Position numbers and translations under genes: made by a program
Shown: piece by piece, positions 4,014 to 29,261 of the stretch
Numbering within the stretch: position 1 is the first letter of the stretch
Layout: each line of letters begins with the position of its first letter
Assembly (NCBI GenBank): GCA_942493025.1
Contig: OW818663.1
Span: 2,258 to 66,257 of the forward strand
DNA from: Paludibacteraceae bacterium
Lineage (GTDB): Bacteria > Bacteroidota > Bacteroidia > Bacteroidales > Paludibacteraceae
DNA: 64,000 nucleotides
Reading direction: 5' to 3'
Notes under the pieces: model-generated
What the model saw: the letters and a program-made list of their open reading frames with translations, nothing else
What the model was told of the DNA's origin: nothing
The model's database searches: none

Positions 4014-4017
4014 TTTT

Positions 4018-5337: not shown

Positions 5338-5381
5338 AAAAAGGAGAAAACTCTGCGGTGAGCATTGAGTTTTCTCCTTTT
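5338..5381 (-). terminator. Terminator after gdhA
   Basis: AAAAAGGAGAAAACTC...GAGTTTTCTCCTTTT hairpin. Confidence 0.75.
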
Positions 5382-5415
5382 ATAATTATTACAGATGAAT
5401 TAAATGGCACATCGA

Positions 5416-6750
5416 TTAGAGTACGCCTTGTGCTAACATTGCTTTTGCAACTTTTAAGAATCCGGCCACGTTAGCACCTTTCATGTAATTAATATAGCCA
5501 TCGCTTTCGCGACCATATTTTACACATTGAGCATGGATCTCGCTCATGATTTGGTGCAATTTAGCATCCACTTCTTCAGCTGTCCAGGTTAAGTGCATCG
5601 CATTTTGCGACATTTCCAGCCCTGAAGTTGCTACACCACCCGCATTTACTGCTTTTCCCGGCCCATACATGATTTTATGTTGAAGCAATAATTCTATGGC
5701 CTCTGGTGTACAGCCCATATTCGAAATTTCACCAACACAAATAACCCCGTTTTCTACGAGAACCCGTGCGTCGTCTTCGTTCAGTTCGTTTTGAGTGGCA
5801 CAAGGAAGTGCAATGTCTACTTTTAATTCCCATGGGCGACGGTTGGCAACGAATTTAGCTCTGAACTTTTCGGCGTAGGGCTCAACAATATCGTTACAAG
5901 TGGCACGTAATTCGAGCATATATTCAATTTTCTCTCCGGCGATACCATTTTCATCATAAATATAACCATCAGGACCGGAGATGGAAACTACTTTTGCACC
6001 CATTTCGGTGGCTTTTTGAGCTGCTCCCCAGGCTACATTCCCAAATCCGGACAGAGCTATGGTTTTTCCCTGAATACTCATTCCTGCAGTTTCAAGCATT
6101 TGCTTTACAAAATACAGACCACCAAAGCCGGTAGCCTCGGGTCGAATCAGAGAACCACCGAATTCCAGGTTTTTTCCGGTAAGTACACCGGTATTTACTC
6201 TTGCCAATTTGCGGTACATCCCGTATAAATATCCAATTTCGCGTCCGCCCACTCCTATATCCCCGGCAGGCACATCGGTATCAGGACCAATATGTTGCCA
6301 AAGTTCAATCATAAATGCCTGACAGAAGCGCATTACTTCAGCATCCGATTTTCCTTTAGGATTGAAGTCTGAACCACCTTTAGCTCCACCCATAGGCAAA
6401 GTAGTAAGTGCATTTTTGAATATTTGTTCGAAGCCCAGAAACTTTAGAATAGATAAGTTTACTGAAGGGTGAAAGCGCAAGCCTCCCTTGTAGGGCCCTA
6501 TTGCATTGTTGAATTGAATTCTGTAGCCAATATTGATTTGAACATCGCCTCTGTCATCTACCCACGGAATCTTGAATGTGAAAATACGATCCGGCTCAAC
6601 TAATCGTTCAGCTATTTTTGCCTTTTCAAATTCAGGATGATCGTTGTACACGTTTTCTATTGTACTCAATACTTCCTTAACGGCTTGTAAATACTCTGTT
6701 TCGCCCGGGTGTTTTGCCTCAAGCGATTGCATTAGTTTCTCGATGTTCAT
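5416..6750 (-). CDS. gdhA: NAD(P)-specific glutamate dehydrogenase
   Basis: GPYKGGLRFHP, LPMGGAKGGSDF, DVPAGDIGVG, RPEATG, GFGNVA, KAVNAGGV motifs. Confidence 0.97.
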   Translation of the reverse strand: MNIEKLMQSLEAKHPGETEYLQAVKEVLSTIENVYNDHPEFEKAKIAERLVEPDRIFTFKIPWVDDRGDVQINIGYRIQFNNAIGPYKGGLRFHPSVNLSILKFLGFEQIFKNALTTLPMGGAKGGSDFNPKGKSDAEVMRFCQAFMIELWQHIGPDTDVPAGDIGVGGREIGYLYGMYRKLARVNTGVLTGKNLEFGGSLIRPEATGFGGLYFVKQMLETAGMSIQGKTIALSGFGNVAWGAAQKATEMGAKVVSISGPDGYIYDENGIAGEKIEYMLELRATCNDIVEPYAEKFRAKFVANRRPWELKVDIALPCATQNELNEDDARVLVENGVICVGEISNMGCTPEAIELLLQHKIMYGPGKAVNAGGVATSGLEMSQNAMHLTWTAEEVDAKLHQIMSEIHAQCVKYGRESDGYINYMKGANVAGFLKVAKAMLAQGVL

Positions 6751-7094
6751 ACCAGTCTGATTTTTTGTAAAATAATTATATTTGATGTGATGGTCAGTTT
6801 CTGTTGAAATTAATTTTACTTTCTTTTGATGTTAAAAATGGCTATATACAGATCATAATAATACTCATTGTTCTTAATTTAGCTAATTGTGGGCTTAAGA
6901 TGCTGTCTAAATGATAATTGGCTCTTTGAAGAATGCTATTTAAATTTCACTGCAAGTTTAGATATTTTATTTGTAACAGTCAAACAATTTGACTTGTTTT
7001 TTAGCAAAATTTTAAGTTCGCATAATTTCAAAAATCTTAATTTGATTTTCTGTTATTAAATTATAAGGTTTTCGGCTTGCCCAATAAATTTTTG

Positions 7095-7102
7095 TATCTT
7101 TG
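7095..7102 (+). promoter_or_regulatory. -7 element (TATCTTTG) for porin operon
   Basis: TAnnTTTG consensus in AT-rich intergenic region. Confidence 0.55.
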
Positions 7103-7286
7103 CGCTTGTGCATAAACACACATTATTTTGCATTTGTGCTGATTGTTTTTGAAGTTGTTTTATAAATAAAGGCCTGAAATACTGTTTGTTCTTTGTTGTC
7201 GAAAAAAATAATGCTTATGCTATTGCAATGCAGGACGCTGAGATTATTTCAACCTGATTTGTTTATTGTTCCTAATATATTTTTGT

Positions 7287-9170
7287 GTGAAGAAGTTTAT
7301 TTTTTGTATTCAGTTTATATTGTTTTCCAACATTCTTTTTGCTCAAACCGAGCAGGTAAATCAATATGTGAAAACCTGGAGGATTTCGGAACAGTTTGCG
7401 AAAGTCGATTCTTTTCATGTTGATACACTCCATCTTAATTATCAAGATGCTAACCCGATTGATCGATTTAGTATTGCCAATTCATACAATGGAAATTTGG
7501 GTTCACCCATACAATCAAAATTGTATTTTAGCAGACCGGAAGTAAATGATTTTATTTTTTCGAATGCTTATTTTCCTTATTTGATGAATGTTCAGAATGC
7601 AACATTTTATAATACCAAATCTCCATTTAGCAATTTGAATTATACTTCAGGGGGAACAACTTACAGAAAAGAAGATAATATCAAATTCTTATTCACCGTT
7701 AATACGAACAAGAAATTTAATTTTGGTACAACACTGGACTATATTTATGCCAGAGGTGAGTATGATAATCAGGCAGTAACTAAGTTTTCGGGTTCTTTGT
7801 TTGGTAGTTATAACGGCAAGCATTATACAGCTTATGGATTGGCCTCTACAAATAGCTTAAGTAATTTTGAAAATGGCGGGCTGAAAGATGTTACAAATGG
7901 AATCAACCCGGAGAATGTGGCTACTATGATTATTCCGGTAAATATGGAGGGATATTCCAAATTTAAACAAAAACAGATTTATTATAATCATCAGTATACC
8001 ATTGGAATTGAACGGGCTAAGCGGGTAAGTAAAGATTCTGTACGGATGGATTATGTGCCGGTAACCCGCTTTGCTCATACTTTTAAGTATGACGATGTGC
8101 GGAAACGATATTATGAGAATACGGTAATTAATGATACAACTATCTACAAAAAGACGTATTTCGACAAACTAATTCATACAAACGACACTTCTGCTTTAAG
8201 GACATTTAAAAATAATTTTTCCATAAGCATGGAAGAGGAGTTTAATAAATGGATGAACTTCGGGCTGACTGCTTTTGTAGAAAATGAAATGCAGAAATAT
8301 ACTTTTAATAGAGATACTTTGGTAAATAGTGTCTCTAAATCAACAACTAAAGTGGGTGGGATTCTCTCCAAAGAACGAGGTCAACGGTTTAGATACAATG
8401 TGCTTGGTGAATTGAGCTTAATTGGGTATAAAGCCGGTGATTTTAGAATTGAAGGCACAATGGGTGGTTTTTTTAAACTGTGGAATGATAGTATTTCGCT
8501 GGTTGCCAGTGGGTTTATGAGAAGTGATAAGCCTTCATTTTTCTTAGAATCTTATAATTCAAATCATTTTAGATGGGAGAATCATTTTGCCAGTACCTAT
8601 CGTACTCATATCGGTGGTACTTTCTCCATTCCTACGCGTTCATTGTCTTTAAATGTTGGTGTTGAGAATATAACTCAACTGATCTATTTCAATTCGAAAG
8701 GTTTACCGGATCAGCATTCGGGTAATGTGCAGGTCATAGCTTTGAATTTAAAACAAGACTTTCATGTAGGAAAGTTTACGCTCGAAAATAATATTGTGTA
8801 TCAGTTAAGTTCTCAGGCTGACGTTTTGCCTTTACCAACTTTGGCACTTTATCATAATTTGTATTATAATGATAAATGGTTTAATGTGTTGAGTATGCAA
8901 TTGGGTGCAAGTGTACGTTATAACACAGCCTATTACGCACCGAAGTATATGCCTGCTACTGGTCAGTTTTATACGCAGTCGGATGTGAAAATAGGCAATT
9001 TCCCAGTTGTAAATGTATATTTAAATTTTCATTTAAAACGTACTCGCGTTTTTGTTGAGTATTATCATTTAAATCAGAAATTTATGAAAACAGCCTATTT
9101 TTCGATGCCTAACTACCCAATAGACCCTGCTATTCTTAAAACGGGTGTATCCTGGAATTTTTATGATTAA
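7287..9170 (+). CDS. Putative outer-membrane beta-barrel porin (Bacteroidetes putative porin family); likely GTG start at 7287
   Basis: Signal peptide MKKFIFCIQFILFSNILFA, alternating beta-strand pattern, C-terminal GVSWNFYD. Confidence 0.8.
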   Translation: MKKFIFCIQFILFSNILFAQTEQVNQYVKTWRISEQFAKVDSFHVDTLHLNYQDANPIDRFSIANSYNGNLGSPIQSKLYFSRPEVNDFIFSNAYFPYLMNVQNATFYNTKSPFSNLNYTSGGTTYRKEDNIKFLFTVNTNKKFNFGTTLDYIYARGEYDNQAVTKFSGSLFGSYNGKHYTAYGLASTNSLSNFENGGLKDVTNGINPENVATMIIPVNMEGYSKFKQKQIYYNHQYTIGIERAKRVSKDSVRMDYVPVTRFAHTFKYDDVRKRYYENTVINDTTIYKKTYFDKLIHTNDTSALRTFKNNFSISMEEEFNKWMNFGLTAFVENEMQKYTFNRDTLVNSVSKSTTKVGGILSKERGQRFRYNVLGELSLIGYKAGDFRIEGTMGGFFKLWNDSISLVASGFMRSDKPSFFLESYNSNHFRWENHFASTYRTHIGGTFSIPTRSLSLNVGVENITQLIYFNSKGLPDQHSGNVQVIALNLKQDFHVGKFTLENNIVYQLSSQADVLPLPTLALYHNLYYNDKWFNVLSMQLGASVRYNTAYYAPKYMPATGQFYTQSDVKIGNFPVVNVYLNFHLKRTRVFVEYYHLNQKFMKTAYFSMPNYPIDPAILKTGVSWNFYD

Positions 9171-10117: not shown

Positions 10118-11035
10118 ATGCCTCTAAATATACCATTCACATTGCCGGCAGTAGATGTTCTTCGTGAAGAGAATATTTTTGTAATGGACTCAGAACGTGC
10201 TTCGAGTCAGGAAATTCGTCCGCTTAAAATTGTGATATTGAACTTGATGCCGGTGAAAATAACCACCGAAACTGATTTGATTCGCTTACTCTCAAACTCG
10301 CCTTTGCAAATTGAAATTGATTTTCTGCACATGGAAAGTCATACTTCAAAGAATACACCTATTGAGCATTTGATGACTTTTTATAAGAGTTTTGATGAAA
10401 TTAAGGAGAGTAACTATGATGGTATGATTATTACCGGTGCCCCGGTGGAATTACTCGAATTTGAGGAAGTAAATTATTGGTCGGAAATAACAACCATTTT
10501 TGATTGGGCTAAAACGCATGTTACCTCAACTCTGTTTATCTGTTGGGCTGCACAGGCGGGATTGTACCATCATTACGGCATTAATAAATATCCACTCAAC
10601 GCAAAGATGTTTGGCGTTTTTGAACATATGAAGTTTGAAAAGCATAATCCTATTTTCCGCGGTTTTGACGATGTGTTTTACGTACCCCATAGTCGTCATA
10701 CCGAAGTGCGTGCAGAAGATATTCGCCGTGTGCCGGAATTGACTTTGCTGTCCGAATCGCCCGAGGCTGGGGTCTATCTTGTAATGGCGCGCAACGGTCG
10801 TGAGTTCTTTGTTACAGGGCACTCCGAGTATTCGCCGGATACTTTGAATACCGAATACAAGCGTGATGTCGCAAAAGGATTGGATATCAATTTACCTCAA
10901 AATTATTATCTGAATGATGACCCGAACAATGAGCCGCTTGTTCGTTGGCGCAGTCATGCCAATCTAATGTTCACCAACTGGTTGAACTACTTTGTATATC
11001 AGGAAACTCCATACGATTTAACGAAGATTCACTAA
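10118..11035 (+). CDS. metA: Homoserine O-acyltransferase MetA (predicted acetyl-specific)
   Basis: ILNLMP, ITGAPVE (Glu111), ICWAAQA (Cys142), GHSEY, WRSHA. Confidence 0.95.
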
Positions 11036-11159
11036 ACCCCTAGCCCCTGAAGGGGAACTAAGTATGTGTTATTAATAACACATAATAATAAAAATGAAAT
11101 CAAAAAATACAACAGACAATACTAATTTAATTCCCCTTCAGAGGTTAGGGGTTAGGGGT
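11036..11159. repeat. Inverted pair of CCCCT-AAGGGG repeats enclosing a perfect 22-bp palindrome and the U32 start codon
   Basis: ACCCCTAGCCCCTGAAGGGGAA (+) and TTCCCCTTCAGAGGTTAGGGGTTAGGGG; TATGTGTTATTAATAACACATA at 11063-11084. Confidence 0.85.
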
Positions 11160-12962
11160 ATCGAACTTCTCTCTCCTGCTAAAAATCTTGAATGTGGTTT
11201 GGCGGCTATTAATCATGGGGCTGACGCCGTGTATATCGGTGCATCTCAGTTTGGAGCGCGCGCTGCAGCCGGAAATTCGATAGAAGATATTAGTACTTTA
11301 GTGCAGTATGCTCATCAATTTCGTGTAAAAGTGCTGGTGGCGTTGAATACAGTGCTGACGGACGATCAATTACCGGATGCTGAAAAGTTGATTTGGGAAA
11401 TTTATAACACCGGAGCCGATGCGTTGATTATTCAGGATATGGGCATTTTGAAACTAAATTTGCCGCCAATAGCACTTCATGCAAGTACGCAAACCGATAA
11501 CCGTACAGTGGAAAAAGTTCGCTTTTTGCAGGATGTTGGTTTTTCGCGTGTGGTGTTGGCTAGGGAGCTTTCGTTGAAACAAATTTCTGAAATTTCTACT
11601 CAAACAAATGTTGAGCTAGAAGCTTTTGTGCACGGTGCTTTGTGTGTGAGTTACAGCGGTCAGTGCTATATGAGTCAGGCTAATTGCGGTCGAAGTGCTA
11701 ACCGGGGTCAATGTGCGCAGTACTGCCGTTTGCCTTATCATTTGGTGGATGCTGATGATAATATGTTGGTGAAAAATAAACATTTGCTTTCATTGAAAGA
11801 TTTAGATCAGTCCGATTCGTTGGACGAGATGATGGAAGCGGGAGTGACTTCGTTTAAAATTGAAGGACGATTGAAAGATGTAGATTATGTAAAAAATATC
11901 ACTTCCTTTTATCGAAAAAAATTAGATGCAATTCTGGAGAACAATCCTCGTTTTCAACGTGCATCGGCAGGAAAAACGACCATCTTATTTGAACCGAATC
12001 CTGAGAAAAGTTTTCGTCGTGGTAATACCGATTATTTTCTGCACGAGCGTAAAGCTAATATTGTCCAGCAAGATACACCCAAATCGTTAGGTGAACCGAT
12101 TGGTAAAGTGACGTATATTGGGCGCAACTTCTTTGAAGTTCAGAATGGAACAGTGTTGAATAATGGTGATGGACTTTGTTTTGTAAATAAGCATGGTGAT
12201 TTGACCGGATTTAGGGTAAATAGAGTCGAACGAAAGCAAATATTTCCGGCGGAGATGCCTAAAATAACGGATGGAGTTATGCTGTACCGTAATCAGGATC
12301 AGGCTTTTGAAAAAATACTGAAGGGTAAAACTTCCGAACGAAAGATTGCGCTCCAGATAGAATTTAAAGAAACTGTTACCGGTTTTTCTATTCAATTAAC
12401 CGACGAAGAAGGAATTTCAAGCATTTTCGAAGTCGAATGCGACAAACAACCTGCTCAAAAGCCGGATGCTGTAAATGATAATATCAAAAATCAGCTTTCT
12501 AAGCTGGGGAATACGATTTATGAGGCTGCTGATATTCTGATTGAAATAAGTTCCCCTTGGTTTTTCCCTGCTTCGCAATTAAGCGAATGGCGTCGATTGG
12601 CTGTGGAGAGACTGGATGAAGTAAAAGCAGCTGCTTATGTTCGTGAATTGAAACACGAAGCGAAGCCGGCAACCTTCGCGACTACGCAATTATCTTATTT
12701 GGGAAATGTAACCAACAAGTTGTCGGAGGAGTTTTATCATGAGCACGGTGTGGAAGATGTACTGCCGGGTTTTGAGGTGAAAGCGGAGGAAGGTGTGCCT
12801 TTGATGTATTGCAAACATTGCATTAAATATAGTATGGGTTGGTGCCCGAAAGAAGGCTATAAAGCTACATTTAAAGAACCCTTGTACCTAAGAAATAATG
12901 ATCAGGTATATCAACTGACTTTTGACTGTAAGGCTTGTGAAATGCGGATATCAAAAGCCTAA
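11094..12962 (+). CDS. rlhA: U32 peptidase family protein with long C-terminal domain (RlhA-like 23S rRNA C2501 hydroxylase)
   Basis: ELLSPA, GADAVYIG, HASTQ, FVHGALCVSYSGQC, SANRGQCAQYCR Fe-S cysteines, FKIEGR; C-terminal LMYCKHC...CP. Confidence 0.75.
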   Translation: MKSKNTTDNTNLIPLQRLGVRGIELLSPAKNLECGLAAINHGADAVYIGASQFGARAAAGNSIEDISTLVQYAHQFRVKVLVALNTVLTDDQLPDAEKLIWEIYNTGADALIIQDMGILKLNLPPIALHASTQTDNRTVEKVRFLQDVGFSRVVLARELSLKQISEISTQTNVELEAFVHGALCVSYSGQCYMSQANCGRSANRGQCAQYCRLPYHLVDADDNMLVKNKHLLSLKDLDQSDSLDEMMEAGVTSFKIEGRLKDVDYVKNITSFYRKKLDAILENNPRFQRASAGKTTILFEPNPEKSFRRGNTDYFLHERKANIVQQDTPKSLGEPIGKVTYIGRNFFEVQNGTVLNNGDGLCFVNKHGDLTGFRVNRVERKQIFPAEMPKITDGVMLYRNQDQAFEKILKGKTSERKIALQIEFKETVTGFSIQLTDEEGISSIFEVECDKQPAQKPDAVNDNIKNQLSKLGNTIYEAADILIEISSPWFFPASQLSEWRRLAVERLDEVKAAAYVRELKHEAKPATFATTQLSYLGNVTNKLSEEFYHEHGVEDVLPGFEVKAEEGVPLMYCKHCIKYSMGWCPKEGYKATFKEPLYLRNNDQVYQLTFDCKACEMRISKA

Positions 12963-13019: not shown

Positions 13020-13700
13020 GAGCGTTGAAGACGCGACATCTGTAAACGTCGGGTAAAGCCCGACGAATAGGTCAATACGGAGCATAAGCCACGAAGTGGC
13101 GTAATCAATATTCCATTTTGAACGAAAGGAGGAAATGAGTGCTTATTCCCAAAGGTATCACTCATTGTATTCTACATTATATTCTTTTAAAAATTGTAAT
13201 AATTCTGTTTGGAAAGTCTTTTTGGAATGATGTGTTTTCTGAGTGGAAATGTATTTTACGACCACTTCGACCTCTTTCGGGTTGACTGAAAATGCACCAT
13301 ACCCATCCTGCCAATAGAAGTTTGAGTAATTCTCTCCTTTTGACTTTATCCATTTTGAAGAATGAGATTTGACTTCCTCCAAAAGTTTTACCAAAGCAAT
13401 TTTTTTTGATAATAAGCAAAGTATATGGATATGATCTAAATATCCACCCACGATTATCGGTTGACATTCGAGTTTTTTACAAACACCACCTAAATAGTTG
13501 AAGAGTTCGTTTTCGATAGACTCATCTATGTAGGGGAATCGATACTTGGTGCTGAAAACAAGATGGATGTAGTTTCTGACGAGTGACTGTGCCATAATGT
13601 TAGGATTTAGTGATTACGCCACTTCGTGGCTTGATGTCGCTGCTTTGCAGCTTCATAGGTCTTTACCCTATGTTAGGAGATTACGCCACTTCGTGGCTAA
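13020..13700. mobile_element. IS200/IS605-family (RAYT-like) Y1 transposase locus flanked by REP-like hairpins
   Basis: tnpA ORF flanked by GCCACGAAGTGGCGTAATC (13088) and two inverted copies (13611, 13679) plus further shared hairpins; no tnpB. Confidence 0.85.
13158..13595 (-). CDS. tnpA: IS200/IS605 family Y1 (HUH) transposase, ends 5 codons early at TGA
   Basis: HLVFSTKYR, DHIH (HUH), WQDGYGAFSV, catalytic YI..Q; in-frame tail Y-L-W-E-stop continues to 13143. Confidence 0.92.
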   Translation of the reverse strand: MAQSLVRNYIHLVFSTKYRFPYIDESIENELFNYLGGVCKKLECQPIIVGGYLDHIHILCLLSKKIALVKLLEEVKSHSSKWIKSKGENYSNFYWQDGYGAFSVNPKEVEVVVKYISTQKTHHSKKTFQTELLQFLKEYNVEYNE

Positions 13701-19946: not shown

Positions 19947-19956
19947 AGAGTAAAAT

Positions 19957-20083
19957 GACCCCTAACCCCTAAAGGGGGATAAGAGGAGTTGCGAGAATTA
20001 TTTAAATTGAAACTAATTCCTTAAATTAAACGAAATATTGCCAGACGAAACTAATCCAATTCCCCTTTAGGGGTTAGGGGTCA
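19957..20083. repeat. Inverted pair of CCCCT-AAGGGG repeats; right copy supplies the radical SAM stop codon
   Basis: GACCCCTAACCCCTAAAGGGGGAT (+) and TTCCCCTTTAGGGGTTAGGGGTC. Confidence 0.88.
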
Positions 20084-21339
20084 AATAATAAAGATAATTG
20101 TTGTCTGTTATCTTTTCCTTTCGCCATTTTTTTCTCGGTAAGCAATCGTCGTACATACTCGGGTGATGTATCATTAACGTTAAAGGCTGCCAGTTCGTTG
20201 CAGGTAATAAAATACTGTGCTTTTTTCAATGAAACTCCCATTTTTTTCAATGATTCGGAGTTTAAGCGACTGTACCGACGAGTGACAACAATCAATTTCG
20301 CCGATTTTACACCGATGCCCGGGATGCGGAGTATCTGTGAATAATCGGCTTTGTTGATGTCCACCGGGAAATGTTCGGGATGACGCAATGCCCATGCCAG
20401 TTTAGGGTCTATCTCTAAGTCGAGGTTCGGGAACTTATCGTCAACAATTTCATCCACTTTGAACTCATAAAAACGCATCAGCCAATCGGCCTGATACAAT
20501 CGGTTTTCGCGCACCAATGGTGGTTTTACGAGTGCCGGTAGTCGGTTGTCGTTCGTATTTATAGGAATGTAGCCCGAATAATATACTCGTTTCAAGCTGG
20601 GTTGTTGATACATCGATGCCGATATGTTGAGTATTTGTTTGTCGCTATCATCGGTAGCGCCAATAATCATTTGCGTACTTTGTCCGGCGGGTGCAAAGCG
20701 TGGCGCCGAATTGAACTTTCGTCGTTCCTCGCGACTCTCCAGTACTCCTTGCTGGATATAGAGCATAGGAGCAAAAACACTTTTATGGTCTTTCTCCGGA
20801 GCAAGCATCTTCAGATTTTCTTCCGTTGGTATTTCTATGTTTACACTCAACCGGTCGGCATACAGTCCGGCTTCGCGCACCAGTTGCTCGCTGGCTCCGG
20901 GTATACTTTTCATGTGGATATACCCATTGTAGCGATGCACCGTGCGCAGTTGTTTCAGCACACGCACCATTCGCTCCATGGTGTAATCGGGAGTATTGAT
21001 AACCCCTGAACTGAGAAACAATCCCTCGATATAGTTTCGGCGATAAAATTCGATGGTGAGTTCTACCAACTCTTCTACCGAAAAAGTGGCGCGCCGGATA
21101 TCATTCGTTCTACGGTTGATACAATAAGCACAGTCGTAAATGCAGTAATTGGTCAGCATTATTTTAAGAAGCGATACGCAGCGACCGTCCTCGGTAAAGC
21201 TATGGCAAATGCCCCAACCGGCTGTGCTGCCAATGCCACCCGGAGTGTTTTTTCGCGTGGTACCGCTCGACGAGCACGAAACATCGTACTTTGCCGACTC
21301 AGCCAGTGTTTTAAGTTTTTCGAGGATTTCTTCTTTCAT
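20074..21339 (-). CDS. TIGR03916-family putative DNA modification/repair radical SAM protein (likely start 21339)
   Basis: AKYDVSCSSSG, GICHSFTEDGRC, CIYDCAYC (CxxxCxxC), PAGQSTQMIIGA, REnRLYQADWL, HhH LRIPGIGVKSA. Confidence 0.92.
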   Translation of the reverse strand: MKEEILEKLKTLAESAKYDVSCSSSGTTRKNTPGGIGSTAGWGICHSFTEDGRCVSLLKIMLTNYCIYDCAYCINRRTNDIRRATFSVEELVELTIEFYRRNYIEGLFLSSGVINTPDYTMERMVRVLKQLRTVHRYNGYIHMKSIPGASEQLVREAGLYADRLSVNIEIPTEENLKMLAPEKDHKSVFAPMLYIQQGVLESREERRKFNSAPRFAPAGQSTQMIIGATDDSDKQILNISASMYQQPSLKRVYYSGYIPINTNDNRLPALVKPPLVRENRLYQADWLMRFYEFKVDEIVDDKFPNLDLEIDPKLAWALRHPEHFPVDINKADYSQILRIPGIGVKSAKLIVVTRRYSRLNSESLKKMGVSLKKAQYFITCNELAAFNVNDTSPEYVRRLLTEKKMAKGKDNRQQLSLLFDP

Positions 21340-21503
21340 GCTATGCAAAGTAACGGATTTTGGACGAGAAAAAAGGACGAGAATCATTAAAACTTGATGC
21401 TTGTTGATAAGTTTTGGATGCAAGTGACGAACTGTTCTTGTGATTCTGGTTCGTGCGATTTAATCTATTGTAAATCTATTGTTTGCACCTTGATGTGTGT
21501 ACA

Positions 21504-22126: not shown

Positions 22127-22359
22127 AGTTTTTCGTTCAACTTTAATTAGGAATAAATCATTTATAGATGCAAAAAGTAAAAAGGATAAAATCTCTATGC
22201 TGAATTGTTGGGATTGATGAGGGATTTCAATTTTGCACTCAATTTGAAAGTATAGTTGTTTATTCCCTATAATTCATTACGATACATTCTATTATTTGCC
22301 TTAATTTTCTTATTTTTGTGGCTCGAAAATTGCTATCGTTTTCGGCAAATAACCAAAGC

Positions 22360-23607
22360 ATGAAAAAACTATTTTTCTTACTTTTCATTTCGCTCTGTTT
22401 GAGTCTCACGGCGCAAACTGTTTACCGTACTCAACTGTTTCAATCCAATATTAAAACGCTTCAATTCAATGTGCAGGGTGAAACAATGGGCTTGCCAGTC
22501 ATTGAACTGAATGGCTCGTCGGTGTTACAATTGAGCTTCGACGAAATGTCGCACGAAGCACATTCCTACAGCTTCAAGGTGTTGCATTGCAATGCCGATT
22601 GGACACTTTCAAATTTGAATTCCAACGAATACATTGCAGGGTTTACCACCGGCAATATAACCGATTATGTGCAATCGTTGAATACCACTGTTTTATATAC
22701 TCATTACAAATTTAATTTGCCCAACGATGATATGAATTTTAAATTATCGGGTAATTATGTGGTGGAGATTTACGAGGATAATCAAACGGATAAGCCTATT
22801 GCCCGCGCTTGTTTCTCGATTGTAGACCCACGGATAAATATTTCAGCAAATTTGAGAGGGAATACCGATACGGAAGTGAACGGGCGATTGCAGCAACTGG
22901 ACGTTGAAGTGAACCTGAACGGTTATCCGGTTCGCGATGCTGCTACGGAACTAAAGATGATCGTGCGACAAAATAATAGGTTCGACAACCAGGTTTCTGA
23001 TCTTAAACCGAGCTATTTTTCCGGTTCAAAACTAAGCTATATCAATAATAAAATGTTGATTTTTGATGGTGGATATGAGTATCACCGTTTCGATATTTCG
23101 TCGGTGTATGCTGCCGGTGTAGGAGTTGCCGGGGTTAAATTTCAACAGGGTTTTTATCATGCTACGCTTTATGATGACAAACTTCAAACTTCAAAATTGT
23201 ATATGGAGGAGATGGATGTGAATGGAAAGTTTGTGGTGAACATGCAGCGCGCGAATGATAATGATACGGAAGCCGATTATATATATATGCACGTCAATCT
23301 GCCTGTAAAACAACCTTTTTTCGATGGACAGGTTTATTTGGGTGGTGAGTTCAATTATAACCTGCTGGATGACGCTTCACGGTTAAAATACGACGTGGAT
23401 GCAGGGGCTTATTCACATACATTATTGCTGAAACAAGGAGGCTATAATTATCAATACTGGTTTGTGCCGAAAGGAACAACCAAAGCCTCGCCCGAACGAA
23501 TTGATGGCAATCACTGGGAGACAAAAAATCAATACACGGTTTATGTTTATCATCGTGCGTGGGGCGAACGGTACGATCGGCTGGTGGGTGTGAAAAATAT
23601 GGAATAA
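22360..23607 (+). CDS. DUF5103-type protein, probable T9SS plug protein (likely start 22360)
   Basis: Signal peptide, LSFDEM, HCNADWTLS, YTHY, SGNY, GGYEYHRFD, LLKQGGYNYQY, ETKNQYTVYVY; TATTTTTG -7 element at 22311. Confidence 0.8.
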   Translation: MKKLFFLLFISLCLSLTAQTVYRTQLFQSNIKTLQFNVQGETMGLPVIELNGSSVLQLSFDEMSHEAHSYSFKVLHCNADWTLSNLNSNEYIAGFTTGNITDYVQSLNTTVLYTHYKFNLPNDDMNFKLSGNYVVEIYEDNQTDKPIARACFSIVDPRINISANLRGNTDTEVNGRLQQLDVEVNLNGYPVRDAATELKMIVRQNNRFDNQVSDLKPSYFSGSKLSYINNKMLIFDGGYEYHRFDISSVYAAGVGVAGVKFQQGFYHATLYDDKLQTSKLYMEEMDVNGKFVVNMQRANDNDTEADYIYMHVNLPVKQPFFDGQVYLGGEFNYNLLDDASRLKYDVDAGAYSHTLLLKQGGYNYQYWFVPKGTTKASPERIDGNHWETKNQYTVYVYHRAWGERYDRLVGVKNME

Positions 23608-23700
23608 CTGGGAATTGGTTTATTAGTTAATAGGATAAGAGTTTATTGGTTAAGTGCGAGCATCAACCAATTCCCAATTAACCAATCAGCCAATTTCCAA
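23606..23700. repeat. Imperfect inverted cluster of AACCAAT/ATTGGTT-type short repeats
   Basis: ttggtttattagtt...ttattggtt versus aaccaattcccaattaaccaatcagccaa. Confidence 0.55.
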
Positions 23701-23738
23701 TGAACAACAATAAAACAAATCAACTATTTTATAAAGCA

Positions 23739-25004
23739 ATGAAAGTTTACAAATTTGGTGGAGCGTCGGTGCGCTCAGCGGAAGGGATTCGGAATATCGC
23801 TCACATTGTGTCGGGCGTGAGTGATAATTTATTTATCGTGGTGTCGGCCATGGGTAAAACCACCAATGCTATGGAAGTGGTGTTGGACTTGTTTATGAAA
23901 GCCGATCACAAAGCTTCGTTGGCAAAGCTTGCTGAGGTAGAGGACTACCACTACGAAATTATTGCTGAACTTTTTGCCGATAAAACCAAAGGGAATGCAG
24001 CCGTAGAACCTCTTTTTGCCGAGCTTAAAACTTACCTGACTGAAGGAGTTGGTGATGAGTATGATCGTTGGTACGACCGGTTGGTGTCTTATGGCGAAGT
24101 TATTTCTACACGCATTGTGTCGGCTTTTCTGGCCGAGTCGGGCATTGCCAACGAGTGGGTGGATATGCGCGGATTGTTGGTAACGGATAGTAATTACCGC
24201 GAAGCCAATGTACGCATGGAAGATTCACAGGTGCGTTTGCAAAAGGTGGCTGATTTTAGCAACAACCGTATTTATCTCGGACAAGGTTTTATTGGAGCCA
24301 ATATCAAAGGCGACCCTACGACTCTTGGGCGCGAGGGTTCTGATTATTCGGCGGCTGTGGTTGGAAATTTATTGAATGCCGAAAGTGTTTCTATTTGGAA
24401 AGATGTGCCGGGTATCTTGAATGCTGACCCGCGCTTGTTCGAAAATACAGTGCTTATTCCGGAAATGACCTATCTTGATGCAGTAGAGTTAGCCTACAGT
24501 GGTGCTCAGATTATTCACCCGAAAACGATTAAACCGCTTCAAAATAAAAATATTCCTTTGTTTGTTCGTCCGTTTGGAAGTCCTTCCGAAGCGGGTTCGG
24601 TGATTAAAGCTACCACCGAAAAGCCTATCGATGTTCCGGTTCTTATTTTGCGCAAGAATCAAGTGCTGATTACCGTGCGTCCGCGCGATTTCTCGTTTGT
24701 ATTGGAAGAAAGTCTTTCGAAAGCATTTGCAGTGATGAACAAACACCGATTGAAAGTTTCGTTGATTCAAAGTTCGGCCATTAGTATCTCGGTTTGCGTG
24801 GATAACTCGCGTTATCTGTCGGGAGCGTTGGACGAATTGGGCAATGATTTTAATGTGAATTATAATGATAATTTGGAACTGCTGACAATTAGAGGTCTTG
24901 CAGACGGAATTGTGGAGAAGACTACTACTGGTCGTACCATTTTATTGAAGCAAGAAACGCGCAGAAGTGGCCGGTTCTTGATGAGAGAGGAAGTTAATTC
25001 ATAA
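23739..25004 (+). CDS. lysC: Aspartate kinase (likely start 23739)
   Basis: KFGGASV, VVSAMGKTTN, TLGREGSDYSA, WKDVPG, ADPR, HPKTIKP; C-terminal ACT-like region. Confidence 0.95.
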   Translation: MKVYKFGGASVRSAEGIRNIAHIVSGVSDNLFIVVSAMGKTTNAMEVVLDLFMKADHKASLAKLAEVEDYHYEIIAELFADKTKGNAAVEPLFAELKTYLTEGVGDEYDRWYDRLVSYGEVISTRIVSAFLAESGIANEWVDMRGLLVTDSNYREANVRMEDSQVRLQKVADFSNNRIYLGQGFIGANIKGDPTTLGREGSDYSAAVVGNLLNAESVSIWKDVPGILNADPRLFENTVLIPEMTYLDAVELAYSGAQIIHPKTIKPLQNKNIPLFVRPFGSPSEAGSVIKATTEKPIDVPVLILRKNQVLITVRPRDFSFVLEESLSKAFAVMNKHRLKVSLIQSSAISISVCVDNSRYLSGALDELGNDFNVNYNDNLELLTIRGLADGIVEKTTTGRTILLKQETRRSGRFLMREEVNS

Positions 25005-25045
25005 TTCATAATGCACAATTCATAATGCACAATTCATAATTCATT
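24994..25045 (+). repeat. Heptamer tandem repeat AATTCAT/AATGCAC overlapping the lysC stop
   Basis: aattcataattcataatgcacaattcataatgcacaattcataattcatt. Confidence 0.85.
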
Positions 25046-25126: not shown

Positions 25127-28100
25127 TTAATCTTCTGTTTCCACCGTTTCGGTAATGCTGCCGTAGCGGTGATATTCGAACGCAATGCTTTGCTCTTTTA
25201 CGTAATGGAGCAATTCCACGCGTCCTTCGATGATGGGTTTTGCCGTGGCTATGTATTTTCCAAGTTGGGCAGCTTTGAGTATCATTTCTTTTGAAATGTC
25301 AGAGCTACAGGTACGGATACGTTCGTAGTCGTCCATCTCTTCCAAAAATTCCGCTTCGGATTGAATAAGAATATCACATTCTTTGTTGATGCAATTTTTC
25401 AGCACTTCCAACTTATAATCTTCGGGGGCAATGCTCAGGGTGATGGGGGTACCCACAACGTCTGCAGCAGTTAGAATCATAAATATATCACTCAATTCGT
25501 CGGTGGCTTGCACGCGCAGTGCCATGCTTTTCAGCGGCAAATAGCGGAAAGTGTTCCGTTCGCCGAGTAGATTATTGATATCGAGTTCCAACGAGAATTC
25601 GTGCTTCCAGTTTTTCAAATAGCTTTCTACAGCCGTTTGGAAACGGGTGTTTTCTTTTACATTCAGCATACTTGCAAACGATTTGTAAGCCGTTTCTTTT
25701 ATCTCTTTGGCTTTATATTCAGCGTTTTCGGCAATGTTTACAAAGCACGAAACATAATTGCGCCCGCCGGCTTTGATGCCACCGCCAAAGGCCGACCGTT
25801 TCATGCCGCCGAATGGTTGGCGGTTGACAATTGCACCTGTGATGCCGCGGTTGATGTACAAATTACCCGCTTCGATGTTTGTTTTCCAATGATGTTGTTC
25901 GGTTTCATCCAAACTTTGAAGTCCGGAGGTCAGTCCAAAATCGGTATGGTTGTTCAATAAATCGATGCCATGATCTAGATCATCAATGCAGACAACGGCT
26001 AACAATGGAGCGAATAATTCATTTTTAAACGTAAAACTACCCGGTTTTACGCCCCATTTTACTGATGGTTTAAGGATGAATTTCTTCTCATCAACGAACT
26101 CCGATTTCACCAGCCACCATTCGCCTTCTTCCAAATGGTTGATGGCCTGCAGCAGTTTGTCGTTTTCGTTGGTAATCATGGGACCAACAACATTGCCGCC
26201 ATTCCATACACCACCAACCTGCAAACTTGTTACGGCATCGGTGAGTTTTGTTTTGAAGTCAGGATCGTTGTACACCTCCTTTTCGAGCAATAACAACGAA
26301 CAAGCCGAACATTTCTGACCGGCATTGCTGAATGCCGATGTTACAATGTTCTGAATAGCATGGTCTCGATCGCCACTGGCGGTGAGGATAATGCCGTTTT
26401 TACCACCGGTCTCGGCCGAGAGTGGACAGGCGGGGTTATTTTCCAACAAGCGGAAAGCAGTATCTGTTCCACCTGTGAGGATAATGTGTTTGATAGACGG
26501 ATGGGCGGTAAGGTAAGTCAATGGTTCGCGACCGTCGGTACATACTACCTGCAAGGCGTCTTTGGGTACGCCGGCAGCCCAAAACGATTTAGCAAACTCC
26601 CACGCCACCGGCAATGCCACCGATGCCGGTTTGAGAATTACGGTGTTTCCACCCGCCAAAGCAGCTGCTACACCACCCACGGGAATAGCCAATGGAAAAT
26701 TCCATGGAGGAATGACCAGCACAATGCCTTTTGGGGTATAAGTGATGGTGTTCAGTTCGGCAAAAGCCTTCATGCTGACCGGATAATAGCGACAAAAATC
26801 GATGGCTTCGGATATTTCCACATCCCCTTCGCCAAATGTTTTACCGGTGATGGCCGACATGCAACCAATCAGATTACCGCGGTCGTTGCCGAGGTTTTCG
26901 GCCACCTGATGAAGAATACGGTTGCGATCGTCCAGAGAAGTGCTGCGCCACTTTGAAGCATCTGTTTCGGCTATAGCAATGATTTCTTTTACTTGTTCCA
27001 GATTAGAGACACTGGCTTCGCAAACACATATTTCTTCTGTCTGACTGCGGTCGAAGTAGCGCAGTTTCTTATCCGAAGTGAATTCTTTCTCACCCATCTG
27101 TACGGGGATAGCATAGGGCTTATCGGCAGTAGTTTTCTTCCATTGATTGCGGATACCGTCGGCCCACAAACGATTTTGTTTTAAATCGAAATCAGTATCC
27201 GGCTCGTTTCTGAAAGTGGATAGTTGATAGTTGACAGTTGACGGTTCATTCTTTTGAGTTTTATCAGATATTGCGTCTGAAACCCCCTTCAGGGGGTAGG
27301 GGGTTGTTCTGTCTTGTGTCCGGTATGATTTTGCTTCAATTTTGTCCTTCAAGCCGTAGGCATCCATAAACTGTTGTTGCAGAAAATGCCATTGTTTACT
27401 GTCGTATTTAAGGTTGAATGAGTAGCTGAGGAAATTGTCTTTCCCGGTATTCTCATCCAGTCGGCGAACAAGGTAAGAGACTGCATTGAGGAAATGCTCG
27501 TTTTTTACCACCGGCGTGTACAAAATAATTTGCTTGCCCAGGTTGCGCATCACGCGGGGTAAGTGATTGGCCATTCCTTCCAACATCTCGAAGGTGACTT
27601 GTTCTTCCACACCCATTTTTTTGCTCAACAGGTAGGCATAGCCAATGCTAAAGAAATTGTGCGACGCAACTCCAACGTGCAATGCCTTGGCGTTTTCGGG
27701 TTCAAGGGCTCGATCGAGAATGTGCAGGTAGTTGGCATCCACTTCCACTTTGCTGCCCAATACCGGATTTTCCCAGCCTTTGAGCGACGAAACAATGCTT
27801 TCCATTTGCAGATTCGCCCCTTTTACCAACCGCATTTTTAAATGTGCTCCACCATTTGCACATCTTTCTTTGGCAAACGCCAGCAGTTCGCTTTGCAAGT
27901 TCCACGCATCAGGTAAATAAGCCTGAATGACAATGCCTGCAGAGTAGTTTTTAAACTGAGGTAAAGCCAGCACCGTTTTAAACACATCCAGCGTTAACTC
28001 GGCATCCTTGTATTCTTCCATGTCGAGGTTCACAAACTTGGAGCGACTGACTCCATTGTCGTCGGTGTATGGGTATTCGATTGATTGTTGGTAGATACGA

Positions 28101-28708
28101 GCCAGTCGTTCGCACAAATCCACCTTGTTTTTGGCATAGTTGAGCGGGTTTATTTGCGCGTAGATACCCGAAATTTTGATAGAGATATAATTAATCTGCG
28201 GATCTTTGAGTGCTTCCAGATAATGTTCGTAACGATGATTGGCCTCTCCGTTGCCGAGTACCACTTCGCCCAACAGGTTGACGTTTTGACCAATTTGTTG
28301 CTTGCGACGTTCGGTGAGATGATGGTTTAGAAAGGATGCCTTTTCGTTGATAATCACTTTGGATGTGTCGGAGCGGAGGCGTTGTTTAAAAATTGGGACG
28401 GCTATAAAATCGAACCAATAGCCGAAGGAAGTGAAGAGTTTAAGGAGAAAAGCATCGGTGGAACTGAAAAACTGCGGCACACCGTACCGTTCAATCAGCA
28501 CCTTCATGCGGCGGGCTAATAATTTATTGTCGTGTATTTGCGACGATTCGTCGAGCATTTTCGAAAGCAGCGTTTTATCATTCGGATTCTGAATGAGGAT
28601 AGCGTACTTTTTTTGTTCTTTCAACTCGTCGCCGGTAATTTCTTTTTCTGATTTGGCAAGAAAGTCTTTTGCCCAATCAAGGACTTCTGTGGTGCTTATT
28701 TTTTCCAT
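25127..28708 (-). CDS. putA: Bifunctional proline dehydrogenase / P5C dehydrogenase
   Basis: LDMEEY, RLVKGAN, VASHN, VRRLDEN, NEPDTDF; ALDH part PPWNFPLAI, LTGGT, ETGGKN, GQKCSA, GAIVNRQPFGG. Confidence 0.95.
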   Translation of the reverse strand: MEKISTTEVLDWAKDFLAKSEKEITGDELKEQKKYAILIQNPNDKTLLSKMLDESSQIHDNKLLARRMKVLIERYGVPQFFSSTDAFLLKLFTSFGYWFDFIAVPIFKQRLRSDTSKVIINEKASFLNHHLTERRKQQIGQNVNLLGEVVLGNGEANHRYEHYLEALKDPQINYISIKISGIYAQINPLNYAKNKVDLCERLARIYQQSIEYPYTDDNGVSRSKFVNLDMEEYKDAELTLDVFKTVLALPQFKNYSAGIVIQAYLPDAWNLQSELLAFAKERCANGGAHLKMRLVKGANLQMESIVSSLKGWENPVLGSKVEVDANYLHILDRALEPENAKALHVGVASHNFFSIGYAYLLSKKMGVEEQVTFEMLEGMANHLPRVMRNLGKQIILYTPVVKNEHFLNAVSYLVRRLDENTGKDNFLSYSFNLKYDSKQWHFLQQQFMDAYGLKDKIEAKSYRTQDRTTPYPLKGVSDAISDKTQKNEPSTVNYQLSTFRNEPDTDFDLKQNRLWADGIRNQWKKTTADKPYAIPVQMGEKEFTSDKKLRYFDRSQTEEICVCEASVSNLEQVKEIIAIAETDASKWRSTSLDDRNRILHQVAENLGNDRGNLIGCMSAITGKTFGEGDVEISEAIDFCRYYPVSMKAFAELNTITYTPKGIVLVIPPWNFPLAIPVGGVAAALAGGNTVILKPASVALPVAWEFAKSFWAAGVPKDALQVVCTDGREPLTYLTAHPSIKHIILTGGTDTAFRLLENNPACPLSAETGGKNGIILTASGDRDHAIQNIVTSAFSNAGQKCSACSLLLLEKEVYNDPDFKTKLTDAVTSLQVGGVWNGGNVVGPMITNENDKLLQAINHLEEGEWWLVKSEFVDEKKFILKPSVKWGVKPGSFTFKNELFAPLLAVVCIDDLDHGIDLLNNHTDFGLTSGLQSLDETEQHHWKTNIEAGNLYINRGITGAIVNRQPFGGMKRSAFGGGIKAGGRNYVSCFVNIAENAEYKAKEIKETAYKSFASMLNVKENTRFQTAVESYLKNWKHEFSLELDINNLLGERNTFRYLPLKSMALRVQATDELSDIFMILTAADVVGTPITLSIAPEDYKLEVLKNCINKECDILIQSEAEFLEEMDDYERIRTCSSDISKEMILKAAQLGKYIATAKPIIEGRVELLHYVKEQSIAFEYHRYGSITETVETED

Positions 28709-28802
28709 AAAAACTTCATTGTTTAAAATTCGTCCGAAAGATAATAGAAAAGTATGAAATTTGTATAATTATTAGACTATTCTTTTAGAAAATGGACGAT
28801 CT

Positions 28803-28900
28803 TGACAGTTATCAGTGAACAGTTATCAGTCATCAGTCATCAGTCATCAGTGAACAGTTATCAGTCATCGGTGAACAGTCATCAGTGAACGGTAATCATA
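28803..28900 (+). repeat. Heptamer tandem repeat TCATCAG/TTATCAG/TGAACAG (about 13 units)
   Basis: cagttatcagtgaacagttatcagtcatcagtcatcagtcatcagtgaacagttatcagtcatcggtgaacagtcatcagtgaacggtaatca. Confidence 0.9.
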
Positions 28901-28970
28901 CCTAAGTTGTTTGTCTGGGGAGAGTAAGAAATAGGACTTAGTGCTGAAATGGATAATTGAAGAATGCAAA

Positions 28971-29222
28971 ATGTAAAACTAAGTAATGAGAAAGTAAGAC
29001 ATCGTAATAAAAAAGTAAATAGTAGTTTTGAAAAAATATAATGTAGTAACTAGAAAGTAATATGTATTAATAAAAAAGTAAAAAGACGCATTAAAAAAGT
29101 AAAGTGGAGTAATAATAAAGTAATGATTATTAATTAAAAAGTAAATTGTAATAATTAAAAAGTAAATTGTAGTAATTGAAAAGTAATACTACGGAGTGAA
29201 AAAGTAAAATGTATTATTCTTA
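28971..29222. repeat. Non-coding 21-bp tandem array, 11-12 units, consensus about AAGTAAATTGTAGTAATTAAA
   Basis: AAGTAA core at 28992, 29013, 29055, 29076, 29097, 29118, 29139, 29160, 29181 and 29202 (29034 degenerate); exact 21-bp phase. Confidence 0.92.
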
Positions 29223-29261
29223 TTTGGCATGAACACAGGAAGTGTGTAACCGTTTTATTGT

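Follow-up and report, generated by a model that had tools for sequence, protein, structure and literature searches.

How does repeat DNA that otherwise lies between genes come to be read as part of a housekeeping enzyme? This question is raised by a stretch of 64,000 nucleotides (the window) from a Paludibacteraceae bacterium (GenBank assembly GCA_942493025.1, contig OW818663.1, positions 2,258 to 66,257), in which the putA gene, encoding a bifunctional proline dehydrogenase (PRODH)/1-pyrroline-5-carboxylate (P5C) dehydrogenase (P5CDH), carries extra sequence at the joint between its two enzyme modules. A preliminary description of this DNA had claimed that the extra sequence is in frame and stems from two repeat families that are otherwise intergenic here, and the open reading frame (ORF), its translation, and the motif matches confirmed that claim. 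With a probability of roughly three in four, we consider the joint to be a disordered, unconstrained tether that has been colonized by two kinds of intergenic repeat, a heptamer array and a small hairpin, both of which are read through, with a longer tether as the only likely consequence.

The window comes from a Paludibacter species and begins at the end of a bacterial rRNA operon, and the closest public assemblies are two Paludibacter metagenome-assembled genomes (MAGs), L001 and L002. Here and below, L-numbers denote loci of relatives, P-numbers denote orthologous proteins, and WIN denotes the window, whose 64 kb constitute the genome coverage for this organism. The gene and the parts of its joint are as follows.

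25127 to 28708, minus strand: putA, bifunctional proline dehydrogenase/P5C dehydrogenase, 1193 aa, from ORF and translation.
27215 to 27307, minus strand: inter-module linker, residues 468-498 (31 aa), flanked by the invariant residues R467 and F499.
27283 to 27304, minus strand: hairpin core ACCCCCT ACCCCCT GAAGGGGG, a singlet resembling a repetitive extragenic palindrome (REP), translated TPYPLKG.
27254 to 27298, minus strand: 45-nt in-frame insertion/deletion (indel) encoding YPLKGVSDAISDKTQ and made up of the second ACCCCCT, GAAGGGGG, and the tail TTTCAGACGCAATATCTGATAAAACTCAA.
27242 to 27253, minus strand: upstream copy of a degenerate direct repeat, AAGAATGAACCG (KNEP).
27214 to 27241, minus strand: imperfect heptamer array TCAACTG TCAACTA TCAACTA TCCACTT, translated STVNYQLST(F).
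27200 to 27211, minus strand: downstream copy of the direct repeat, AGAAACGAGCCG; no product of insertion, it forms the conserved N-terminal (F)RNEP of the P5CDH module.

The protein is clearly a bifunctional PutA, with the Pfam domains Pro_dh at residues 130-428 (8e-58) and Aldedh at residues 558-991 (8e-101) on a single polypeptide. Its closest solved structure is the PutA 5ux5 (E 2e-188), followed by 5ur2. Around the joint it reads YRTQDR, then TTPYPLKGVSDAISDKTQKNEPSTVNYQLST, then FRNEPDTDF, and F499, N501, and E502 are invariant across 48 orthologues. In the monofunctional P5CDH structures 3qan, 1uzb, and 3rjl, residue 3-4 aligns to PutA residues 496-498. Because monofunctional P5CDH chains begin there, the FRNEPDT anchor is the N terminus of the P5CDH module, and the linker is therefore the fusion joint of the PRODH and P5CDH modules. 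AlphaFold2, run with the 48 orthologues, gave a model (mean predicted local distance difference test [pLDDT] score, 74; predicted template modeling [pTM] score, 0.74) in which residues 455-509 lack secondary structure, with pLDDT below 50 at residues 472-493 and at 26-35 over residues 471-490 (ten-residue means of 35 and 26). The extra joint residues are predicted to fall in this disordered loop, a placement for which the preliminary description had allowed. Predicted tryptic peptides across the joint include GVSDAISDK and NEPSTVNYQLSTFR.

The joint of the window is unusually long. Across 120 aligned Paludibacteraceae PutA orthologues, which are 73-98% identical, two conserved anchors, RTQ[DN]R and FxNEPDT, enclose a hypervariable joint that ranges from 11 to 72 aa with a median of 14 and reaches at least 20 aa in 32/120. 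Eighty genomic loci were taken from GTDB species representatives, and outside Paludibacter (Dysgonomonas, Tannerella, Prevotellaceae, "Candidatus Symbiothrix," and "Candidatus Azobacteroides") the joint measured 11-13 aa, with exactly 12 in 27/35; one example is TKAPVPVADINT. The preliminary description would have yielded to repeat-free orthologues with a linker of equal length and similar sequence. What the alignment with Bacteroidales PutA proteins gave was linkers that are mostly 12 aa long, against 31 in the window, and unrelated in sequence. The nearest relatives, L001 and L002, have a joint of 16 aa and lack exactly 45 nt.

One account of these lengths would make the linker a relic of the gene fusion, that is, an old spacer between once separate PRODH and P5CDH genes, repeats included. 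It draws on the coincidence of the joint with the N terminus of monofunctional P5CDH and on the intergenic type of the repeats. However, the gene is fused in 80/80 Bacteroidales loci, split genes were not found there, and the joint outside Paludibacter is steady at ~12 aa and apparently free of repeats. Since lineages outside Paludibacter share this ~12-aa joint, the fusion long predates the repeats, and a fusion relic is extremely improbable.

Within the Paludibacter clade, linker DNA is often a heptamer array. Period-7 autocorrelation was 0.6-0.78 in many linkers of the clade, 0.51 over the entire linker of the window (~0.25 at other lags), and ~0.15-0.45 in the array-free linkers of the clade. 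The units and the peptides that they encode differ, as follows.

Linker heptamer AACTTCA: peptide QTSNFKL.
Linker heptamer CGGTAGT or AAGCAGT: peptide VVGSxxS or SSKQQAV.
Linker heptamer GGAACAC: peptide EHGTRNT.
Linker heptamer TCAACTN: peptide STVNYQL.

Array units are unrelated between sister taxa. L089 has an 11-aa joint free of repeats, TKKAENKIDYVN, and L090 has an AAGCAGC array at the place of the hairpin. In L004, L008, and L009, the consensus unit would give TAA or TAG in every third unit, and the units that would have been in-frame stops are mutated at exactly that position (CAGTAAG in L004, AAGCAGT in L008, and AGTCGGT in L009), a substitution that removes the stop. As far as sequences alone can tell, these substitutions are the footprint of selection on a translated microsatellite. 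Neither a split putA nor a stop-bearing array at the joint was found among the loci first missed by the anchor pattern. The repeat-written joint is a clade-wide hot spot and not a single event, a feature that escaped the preliminary description.

A Prevotellaceae MAG, L080, carries nine intergenic AATCACT/AAACACT arrays within 4 kb (positions 4715-8855) and has a PutA joint of the normal 12 aa. Abundant heptamer arrays alone are thus insufficient for colonization of the joint.

The array in the linker of the window consists of four 7-nt units placed head to tail and is thus a heptamer tandem array (three or more units). Four units occur in all six lineages of the species complex to which the window belongs (91-94% identical). 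The array stands in register with the conserved anchor ACT TTC AAA AAC, running into it as TCAACTT TCAAAAA C, and in L014 a perfect (CTTTCAA)4 lies directly beside the anchor. It looks like a four-unit imperfect microsatellite, (TCAACTN)4, of a class resembling the STRR and TAACTGA repeats. Its most likely origin is slippage during replication, starting at the ACT-TTC-AAA-AAC anchor and keeping its register, and slippage at the site is a sufficient source of the array. STRR heptamers of cyanobacteria form a related class. The unit TCAACTG/A differs at 2/7 positions from TCAGTTA, the reverse of TAACTGA, and the linker array is for this reason a relative and not a strict member of the TAACTGA family. 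Linker and intergenic arrays have a unit class in common within each of three genomes, namely, TCAACTG in the window and AAGCAGT in both L008 and L025. The arrays in the window that bear on this are as follows.

281 to 382, plus strand: heptamer arrays in the 16S-tRNA spacer, CAGTTGA-type at ~291-330 (the class of the linker unit) and TAACTGA-type at 349-380.
3870 to 3899, plus strand: TGTCAAC/TCAACTG array in the 23S-5S spacer.
24992 to 25045, plus strand: AATTCAT/AATGCAC array (also written AATTATG) downstream of putA.
28791 to 28900, minus strand: TAACTGA-like array of ~14 units, ~85 nt upstream of the putA start.

The statement of the preliminary description that the heptamer family also occurs in the rRNA spacers therefore holds, as the TCAACTG class is found in both the 16S-tRNA and the 23S-5S spacers. 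The run at 349-380 is nearly perfect, with four TAACTGA-type units, one of which reads TGACGAC. In contrast to the linker array, those at 349-380 and 28791-28900 count as true TAACTGA-type arrays. The array at 24992-25045 provides the stop codon of an amino-acid-kinase ORF at 23700 to 25004.

Copy number behaves differently in coding and noncoding DNA. At orthologous sites in six relatives, the array upstream of putA has ~14, 7, 6, 3, 3, and 1 units, and the copy number of the downstream AATTATG array also differs among relatives (sites compared: L001, L002, L089, L090, and L091). The noncoding arrays thus shift in copy number between close relatives (92-94% identical) at orthologous sites, which is the mark of slippage. 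The coding array is constant at four units, as expected under a frame constraint, because only changes of three units (21 nt) would be viable.

Under matched thresholds, the window contained 8 period-7 arrays, 6/8 of them noncoding; periods 6 and 8-11 gave none, and neither did shuffled sequence. The survey was taken over 1.46 Mb, comprising the window and 88 loci, and here 77 period-7 arrays stood against 25, 32, 8, 3, and 0 for periods 5, 6, 8, 9, and 10, respectively. Across the same 1.46 Mb of putA neighborhoods, 24 period-7 arrays lay inside ORFs of at least 150 aa, and 22/24 of these were at the putA joint. As for further coding sequences (CDS) with these motifs, for which the preliminary description had proposed a search, the other two of these heptamer arrays lay outside the joint, and the hairpin was not found in frame in another CDS in the window or in the related loci (putA neighborhoods only).

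An ORF with a type IX secretion system plug domain, at 22318 to 23607, contains 2.5 CAAACTT units (KLQTSKL) at 23177-23206. CAAACTT is the unit of the commonest PutA linker (QTSNFKLQT) in other Paludibacter. We considered KLQTSKL as an insertion and rejected it, 2.5 units being too short.

The preliminary description had also seen a degenerate direct repeat, KNEP/RNEP, around the heptamer block and had likened it to a target duplication. The repeat is present as described, with AAGAATGAACCG and AGAAACGAGCCG matching at 8/12 positions, and in L087/L091 the alignment can be read as 13/16 matches when extended to ACT...AAAAACGAAC. We set a target-site duplication aside as not established. What serves as the downstream copy is a motif of P5CDH that is conserved universally, found as FKNEP/RNEP in all Bacteroidales orthologues irrespective of arrays; the repeat brackets the heptamers and not the hairpin; and no such duplication is seen at the filled site of a hairpin doublet described below. 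The upstream copy varies among relatives (KKQP, KTKP, KNEL, and QNEL) and would more simply have come from the anchor by duplication on the spot, either seeding the array or arising along with it.

The hairpin is a separate matter. Between the window and L001/L002, which are ~92% identical in nucleotides over putA, there is one clean 45-nt indel with edges that are ambiguous by a few nucleotides, and all three have the TCAACTN block and the two direct-repeat copies. The joint has two parts and not the single insertion of the preliminary description, as all close relatives have the heptamer block, which predates the hairpin indel. The 45 nt are present in four of the six lineages of the complex (the window, L085/86, L087, and L091/92 = P0001) and absent from L001 and L002. 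As single-stranded DNA, the putA singlet (27240-27310, minus strand) folds at -9.7 kcal/mol, with a z score of -3.0.

Repeats and hairpins are prone to misassembly, and read depth dips across 27260-27307 when contigs are laid down on the window, both of which could suggest an artefact of assembly or sequencing. The chance of this is close to negligible. A Logan contig from an independent run, X1, is identical to the window across 27230-27386, five further independent assemblies contain the insert, the frame is unbroken, and 47 proteins make up the cluster. The exact match from an independent sequencing run establishes that the 45-nt insert is real. Other metagenome contigs, from X1 and from other runs, are without the insert, and both forms are thus seen. 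We considered polymorphism within a strain, as both forms occur in one biofilm metagenome, and rejected it; the contigs concerned are 5-12% divergent and therefore belong to different species. Import of the linker by homologous recombination was likewise rejected, as the flanks are collinear and ~92% identical up to the edges of the 45 nt and no mosaic appeared in sliding-window identity.

Its absence from L001 and L002 had first suggested a recent insertion in the lineage of the window. In a neighbor-joining tree of putA DNA with the linker removed, rooted on L090 and L089, 84% of bootstraps placed the element-bearing L085 at the base, and in none did L001 pair with L002, which weakened that idea. 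The hairpin may instead be ancestral to the species complex, and its absence from L001 and L002 may represent loss or a recombinant allele. The outgroups L089 and L090 have no hairpin at the joint. In distant orthologues, the hairpin core occupies the identical nucleotide position, orientation, and frame (L081 = P0086, IPYPLKEVSDAVS; L082 = P0070; L083 = P0063; L084 = P0030; and P0062), and a decayed copy stands at the joint in L026. Joint copies span at least five clades, each with element-free sisters. The putA hairpin copies of WIN and L081 are identical at 29/33 positions, in genes that are ~75% identical at the protein level. Judged from the two copies, this hints that they stem more recently from a conserved family, or else that the hairpin is under constraint.

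In other Paludibacter lineages, the PutA joint holds hairpins of another family that is unrelated to the first, with CCCTCTC-TGGAG-GAGAGGG ahead of AGGGAGAGG (L044 at ~11433 and protein P0046). The family with the AGGGAGAGG tail translates as LSGGEGFRER or GEGFGVRS, has an intergenic relative in a "Candidatus Symbiothrix" contig, and has a further coordinate at L050 9369.

The putA hairpin belongs to a dispersed family whose consensus, ACCCCTAA CCCCT[A/G]AAGGGG, is followed by a tail. Allowing at most 3 mismatches, the window matches the 20-mer CCCCTACCCCCTGAAGGGGG at four further places, 11037 (plus), 11132 (minus), 19959 (plus), and 20061 (minus), where none is expected by chance. Together with a degenerate copy at ~171-195, these account for the five other intergenic copies counted in the preliminary description. 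The copies are arranged as follows; MITE stands for miniature inverted-repeat transposable element and REPIN for the doublet of inverted REP sequences.

171 to 195, plus strand: degenerate hairpin singlet just past the 16S rRNA 3' end, with a fold no better than shuffled sequence (z score, -0.6).
11026 to 11162, no strand assigned: intergenic inverted doublet, REPIN/MITE-like, inverted repeat I1, folding at -23.8 kcal/mol (z score, -5.7).
19947 to 20083, no strand assigned: intergenic inverted doublet, inverted repeat I2, folding as single-stranded DNA (19956-20083) at -29.8 kcal/mol (z score, -6.7).

Intergenic copies were found in WIN, L004, L006, L025, L026, L030, and L074, often as inverted doublets 70-110 nt apart, and doublets outside the window occur in L004, L006, and L026. 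The first doublet of the window sits between a homoserine O-succinyltransferase gene and a peptidase U32 gene. The second, at 19947-20083, is present only in the window, and its site is empty in five relatives (L001, L002, the outgroup L090, L091, and L092). The empty site reads TTATTATTT, CCTGAATAAAAA, ATG, and the radical S-adenosylmethionine (radical-SAM) and DUF4130 genes are there 3 nt apart. In the window, the radical-SAM ORF (20074 to 21423, minus strand) takes its final two codons and its stop from the doublet and changes from PE-stop to DP-stop. Because the site is filled in the window and empty in five relatives, the hairpin family is mobile as well as dispersed. The preliminary description had selfish repeats generating new peptide sequence. 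The mobility of the hairpin family agrees with this; the heptamers, in register with the anchor, may be a product of local slippage and not of transposition.

By its form the family has traits of two known classes. The elements are noncoding and 128-137 nt long (MITEs span 50-500 bp), with imperfect inverted arms of 38-45 nt around an AT-rich core, as in the terminal inverted repeats of MITEs, and show MITE-like presence and absence at 19947-20083, where a MITE-like target-site duplication was not found. As in REP sequences, they are short, extragenic, repeated imperfect palindromes (five intergenic copies in 64 kb), and their inverted doublets fold as a long hairpin. A pattern scan of metagenomes for the hairpin with its tail gave 4 exact matches, three in putA and one intergenic, in L088. 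The L088 copy lies 31 nt upstream of an ORF and carries the tail TTTCAGACGCAGT, as do the putA copies, and the putA-type subfamily is for this reason not confined to putA. These 4 matches suffice to establish dispersal and are too few for a census. No shared target motif was evident by eye in the left-hand flanks of the elements, and a CCTGAA-like sequence at two empty sites (n = 2) is no more than suggestive.

A transposase gene lies 2 kb from one of the doublets.

13158 to 13595, minus strand: Y1 (IS200-type) transposase ORF, 145 aa, in the region 13086-13699.

The Y1 gene is flanked by three copies of a 22-nt palindromic motif, AAGCCACGAAGTGGCGTAATCA, one on one side and two, inverted, on the other. 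Its layout resembles that of the REP-associated tyrosine transposases (RAYT); it scores 64 bits as IS200 and 20.5 bits as RAYT, against a cutoff of 80. The hairpin of the putA family is of a CCCCTAA type, and the other is of a GCCACGAAGTGGC type. We considered the Y1 transposase as the mover of the CCCCTAA family and rejected the link, since the palindrome that flanks it, AAGCCACGAAGTGGCGTAATCA, is a different one. Because that palindrome differs and the gene scores below the RAYT cutoff, the hairpin family is called REPIN/MITE-like and not REPIN.

It might be argued that nothing was imported at all, and that slippage and small duplications produced heptamers and hairpin alike on the spot, in a low-complexity linker, their likeness to intergenic repeats reflecting a shared mutational bias. 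The anchor register of the TCAACT array, the perfect array that abuts the anchor in L014, and the slippage of noncoding arrays at orthologous sites are all in keeping with this, and ACCCCCT ACCCCCT is itself a heptamer duplication. For the joint as a whole we nonetheless find it very unlikely. The window has five more copies of the 20-mer motif of the hairpin where chance predicts none, the 13-nt tail past the hairpin is common to an intergenic copy in the unrelated contig L088, and a full doublet of the family has been inserted at another site in this genome only. A purely local origin may yet apply to the heptamer part alone.

In the colonized-tether explanation that we favor, the heptamer array would persist only in the strand orientation that is free of stops, with its copy number held by the reading frame. 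The hairpin part would be a 45-nt singlet of the mobile dispersed family, gained or lost cleanly in frame, and the ribosome would read through both parts to give the filler peptides TPYPLKGVSDAISDKTQ and STVNYQLST. From these patterns we infer the slippage origin of the array, the neutrality of the peptide, and the mode in which the hairpin moves.

Several observations weigh against this explanation. The count that makes the joint a hot spot is biased, as every locus surveyed was picked for containing putA. The putative neutrality of the peptide draws on its hypervariability and low pLDDT, and the model that gives the latter is only moderate in quality (mean pLDDT of 74). Loss of the hairpin in L001 and L002, or recombination, would be at least as parsimonious as gain, and both loci retain CCC[T/G]AAG at the site, which may be either a remnant or a target. 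The single position, orientation, and frame of the joint copies fit vertical inheritance with repeated loss, or selection, equally as well as repeated insertion. At the filled site 19947-20083, a flanking target duplication was not seen, and 12 nt were replaced instead. Finally, the 64-kb window yielded no transposase linked to the CCCCTAA family and no cognate RAYT.

Some of these points would suit a selected function. Tether length might tune channelling or oligomerization, or an mRNA hairpin or a site for a heptamer-binding protein might pace translation between the modules or regulate the downstream half. Many lineages carry repeats at exactly this joint, in a single orientation and frame; distant orthologues agree more closely in the hairpin core than in the gene as a whole (29/33 for WIN-L081); and heptamer arrays flank putA on both sides. 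However, the joints of close relatives are wholly different, from 11 aa without repeats (L089, TKKAENKIDYVN) to 72 aa, with unrelated units in sister taxa, and L001 and L002 dispense with the hairpin. The single orientation and frame are expected from stop avoidance alone, as each strand of the canonical element has, by manual inspection of the sequence, a single open frame, and stop-avoiding substitutions are indeed seen in the arrays. Given also that the segment is predicted to be disordered, we regard a selected function as quite unlikely.

A bolder proposal is that an active, site-selective system is at work, in which a hairpin that homes by Y1 "peel-and-paste" to CC(C)T[G/A]AA-like sites and a heptamer generator repeatedly rewrite the joint, the resulting cassette possibly being selected for tether length or for control at the RNA level. 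We think this unlikely. If true, the PutA linker would be a continuously diversified natural cassette and a window onto the origin of bacterial heptamer repeats (STRR/TAACTGA).

Other repeats were noted near putA and in the rRNA operon. Upstream of putA, positions 28959-29230 hold at least eight copies of an A/T-rich 21-nt repeat with the core TTACTTTTT (putA strand), which is common to L002. At the matching region, L001, L089, and L090 have a tRNA_edit gene and an array of the palindrome GCATTCTCA-N4-TGAGAATGC, with the look of operator sites, and the region upstream of putA is mosaic among close relatives. At 3993-4427 there are three copies, spaced 168-177 nt apart, of a unit that joins the 5S rRNA 3' end to the terminator hairpin (AAAGCCCCGATTACTGAAAAGTAGTTGGGGCTTTTTTT), and GGGAATT heptamer arrays lie between the copies at 4068-4110 and 4234-4271.

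Translated repeat DNA in the PutA joint is real and recurrent and is probably harmless. The locus offers a clean natural case of noncoding repeat DNA turned into protein sequence, in which one joint went from 12 aa in most Bacteroidales to 11-72 aa of translated microsatellite or hairpin in one family, the remaining protein being 73-98% identical. A filter is built into the locus by its reading frame and is visible in the single orientation, in the mutated stop-creating units, and in a frozen coding array set against noncoding neighbors that expand and contract. The locus is useful for the study of the origin and movement of heptamer repeats and small hairpins, which are unexplained in cyanobacteria, Beggiatoaceae, and Bacteroidetes. 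For annotators and structural biologists, the PutA segment would be dispensable filler and the joint a permissive insertion site. By itself, the finding suggests no new biochemical function.

A literature search returned nothing relevant on PutA linker insertions in Bacteroidales. Heptamer repeats as such are on record, since those of the TAACTGA type have been reported in five Bacteroidetes, among them Paludibacter propionicigenes, as well as in Beggiatoaceae and Cyanobacteria (MacGregor 2015, PMC4679880). In that report, every frame of the forward orientation contains stops, the reverse translates as LSVISYQ, and arrays overlap the ends of CDS; the reverse orientation is therefore the only translatable one. 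The same work anticipated that heptamer repeats would be tolerated between the modules of modular proteins, and cites long simple-sequence repeats (Mrazek 2007, as cited in PMC4679880). Like TAACTGA repeats, the arrays described here are short and imperfect, with 7-nt units, and mostly intergenic, often beside start or stop codons, and those of the window overlap CDS ends and supply stops (24992-25045 and 20074). Unlike the TAACTGA report, many unit classes coexist in Paludibacter DNA, one protein joint is reused across a bacterial family, and translated arrays reach ~200 nt.

The closest parallel that combines both kinds of repeat may be in Nostoc, in which small dispersed repeats, hairpins of ~20-30 nt nested in heptamer arrays, were reportedly described by Elhai and coworkers in 2008, with mobility reportedly seen from filled and empty sites. 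We take this as a lead only; the phylum is another one, and the sequences are not known to be related.

The preliminary description compared the joint with the palindromic elements of Rickettsia. Those elements lie in frame in enzymes, are ~100-150 bp long, encode a conserved peptide of ~30-50 aa, and occupy dozens of unrelated genes per genome (Ogata et al. 2000, via PMC10969869), and in-frame insertions of MITEs and Rickettsia palindromic elements provide a precedent (PMC10969869). The comparison is apt for the mode of action, as in both cases a palindrome of intergenic type lies in frame in a housekeeping enzyme and lengthens the protein where the fold allows it. A likeness in sequence to the Rickettsia elements was not noticed, no comparison having been run. 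Within the putA neighborhoods surveyed, the parallel does not extend to in-frame copies in many unrelated genes; the coding copy in putA is a 45-nt singlet (15 aa), only one gene joint is known as a host, and Paludibacter is a free-living member of the Bacteroidales and not an intracellular bacterium with a reduced genome.

REPINs are inverted REP doublets that constitute a mobile unit and are mobilized by RAYT transposases (Bertels & Rainey 2011, PMC3116915). The hairpin family shares with them an extragenic imperfect palindrome, mostly in inverted doublets 70-110 nt apart that form a long hairpin and also as singlets, insertion without an obvious target duplication, and a nearby Y1 gene with flanking palindromes. 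It differs in that the Y1 palindrome AAGCCACGAAGTGGCGTAATCA is not that of the family and in that heptamers make up the family motif itself (CCCCTAA CCCCTAA AGGGG). The mechanisms indicated at the PutA joint are thus of known kinds, namely, slippage of heptamers under a frame filter and the in-frame carriage of a small mobile hairpin.

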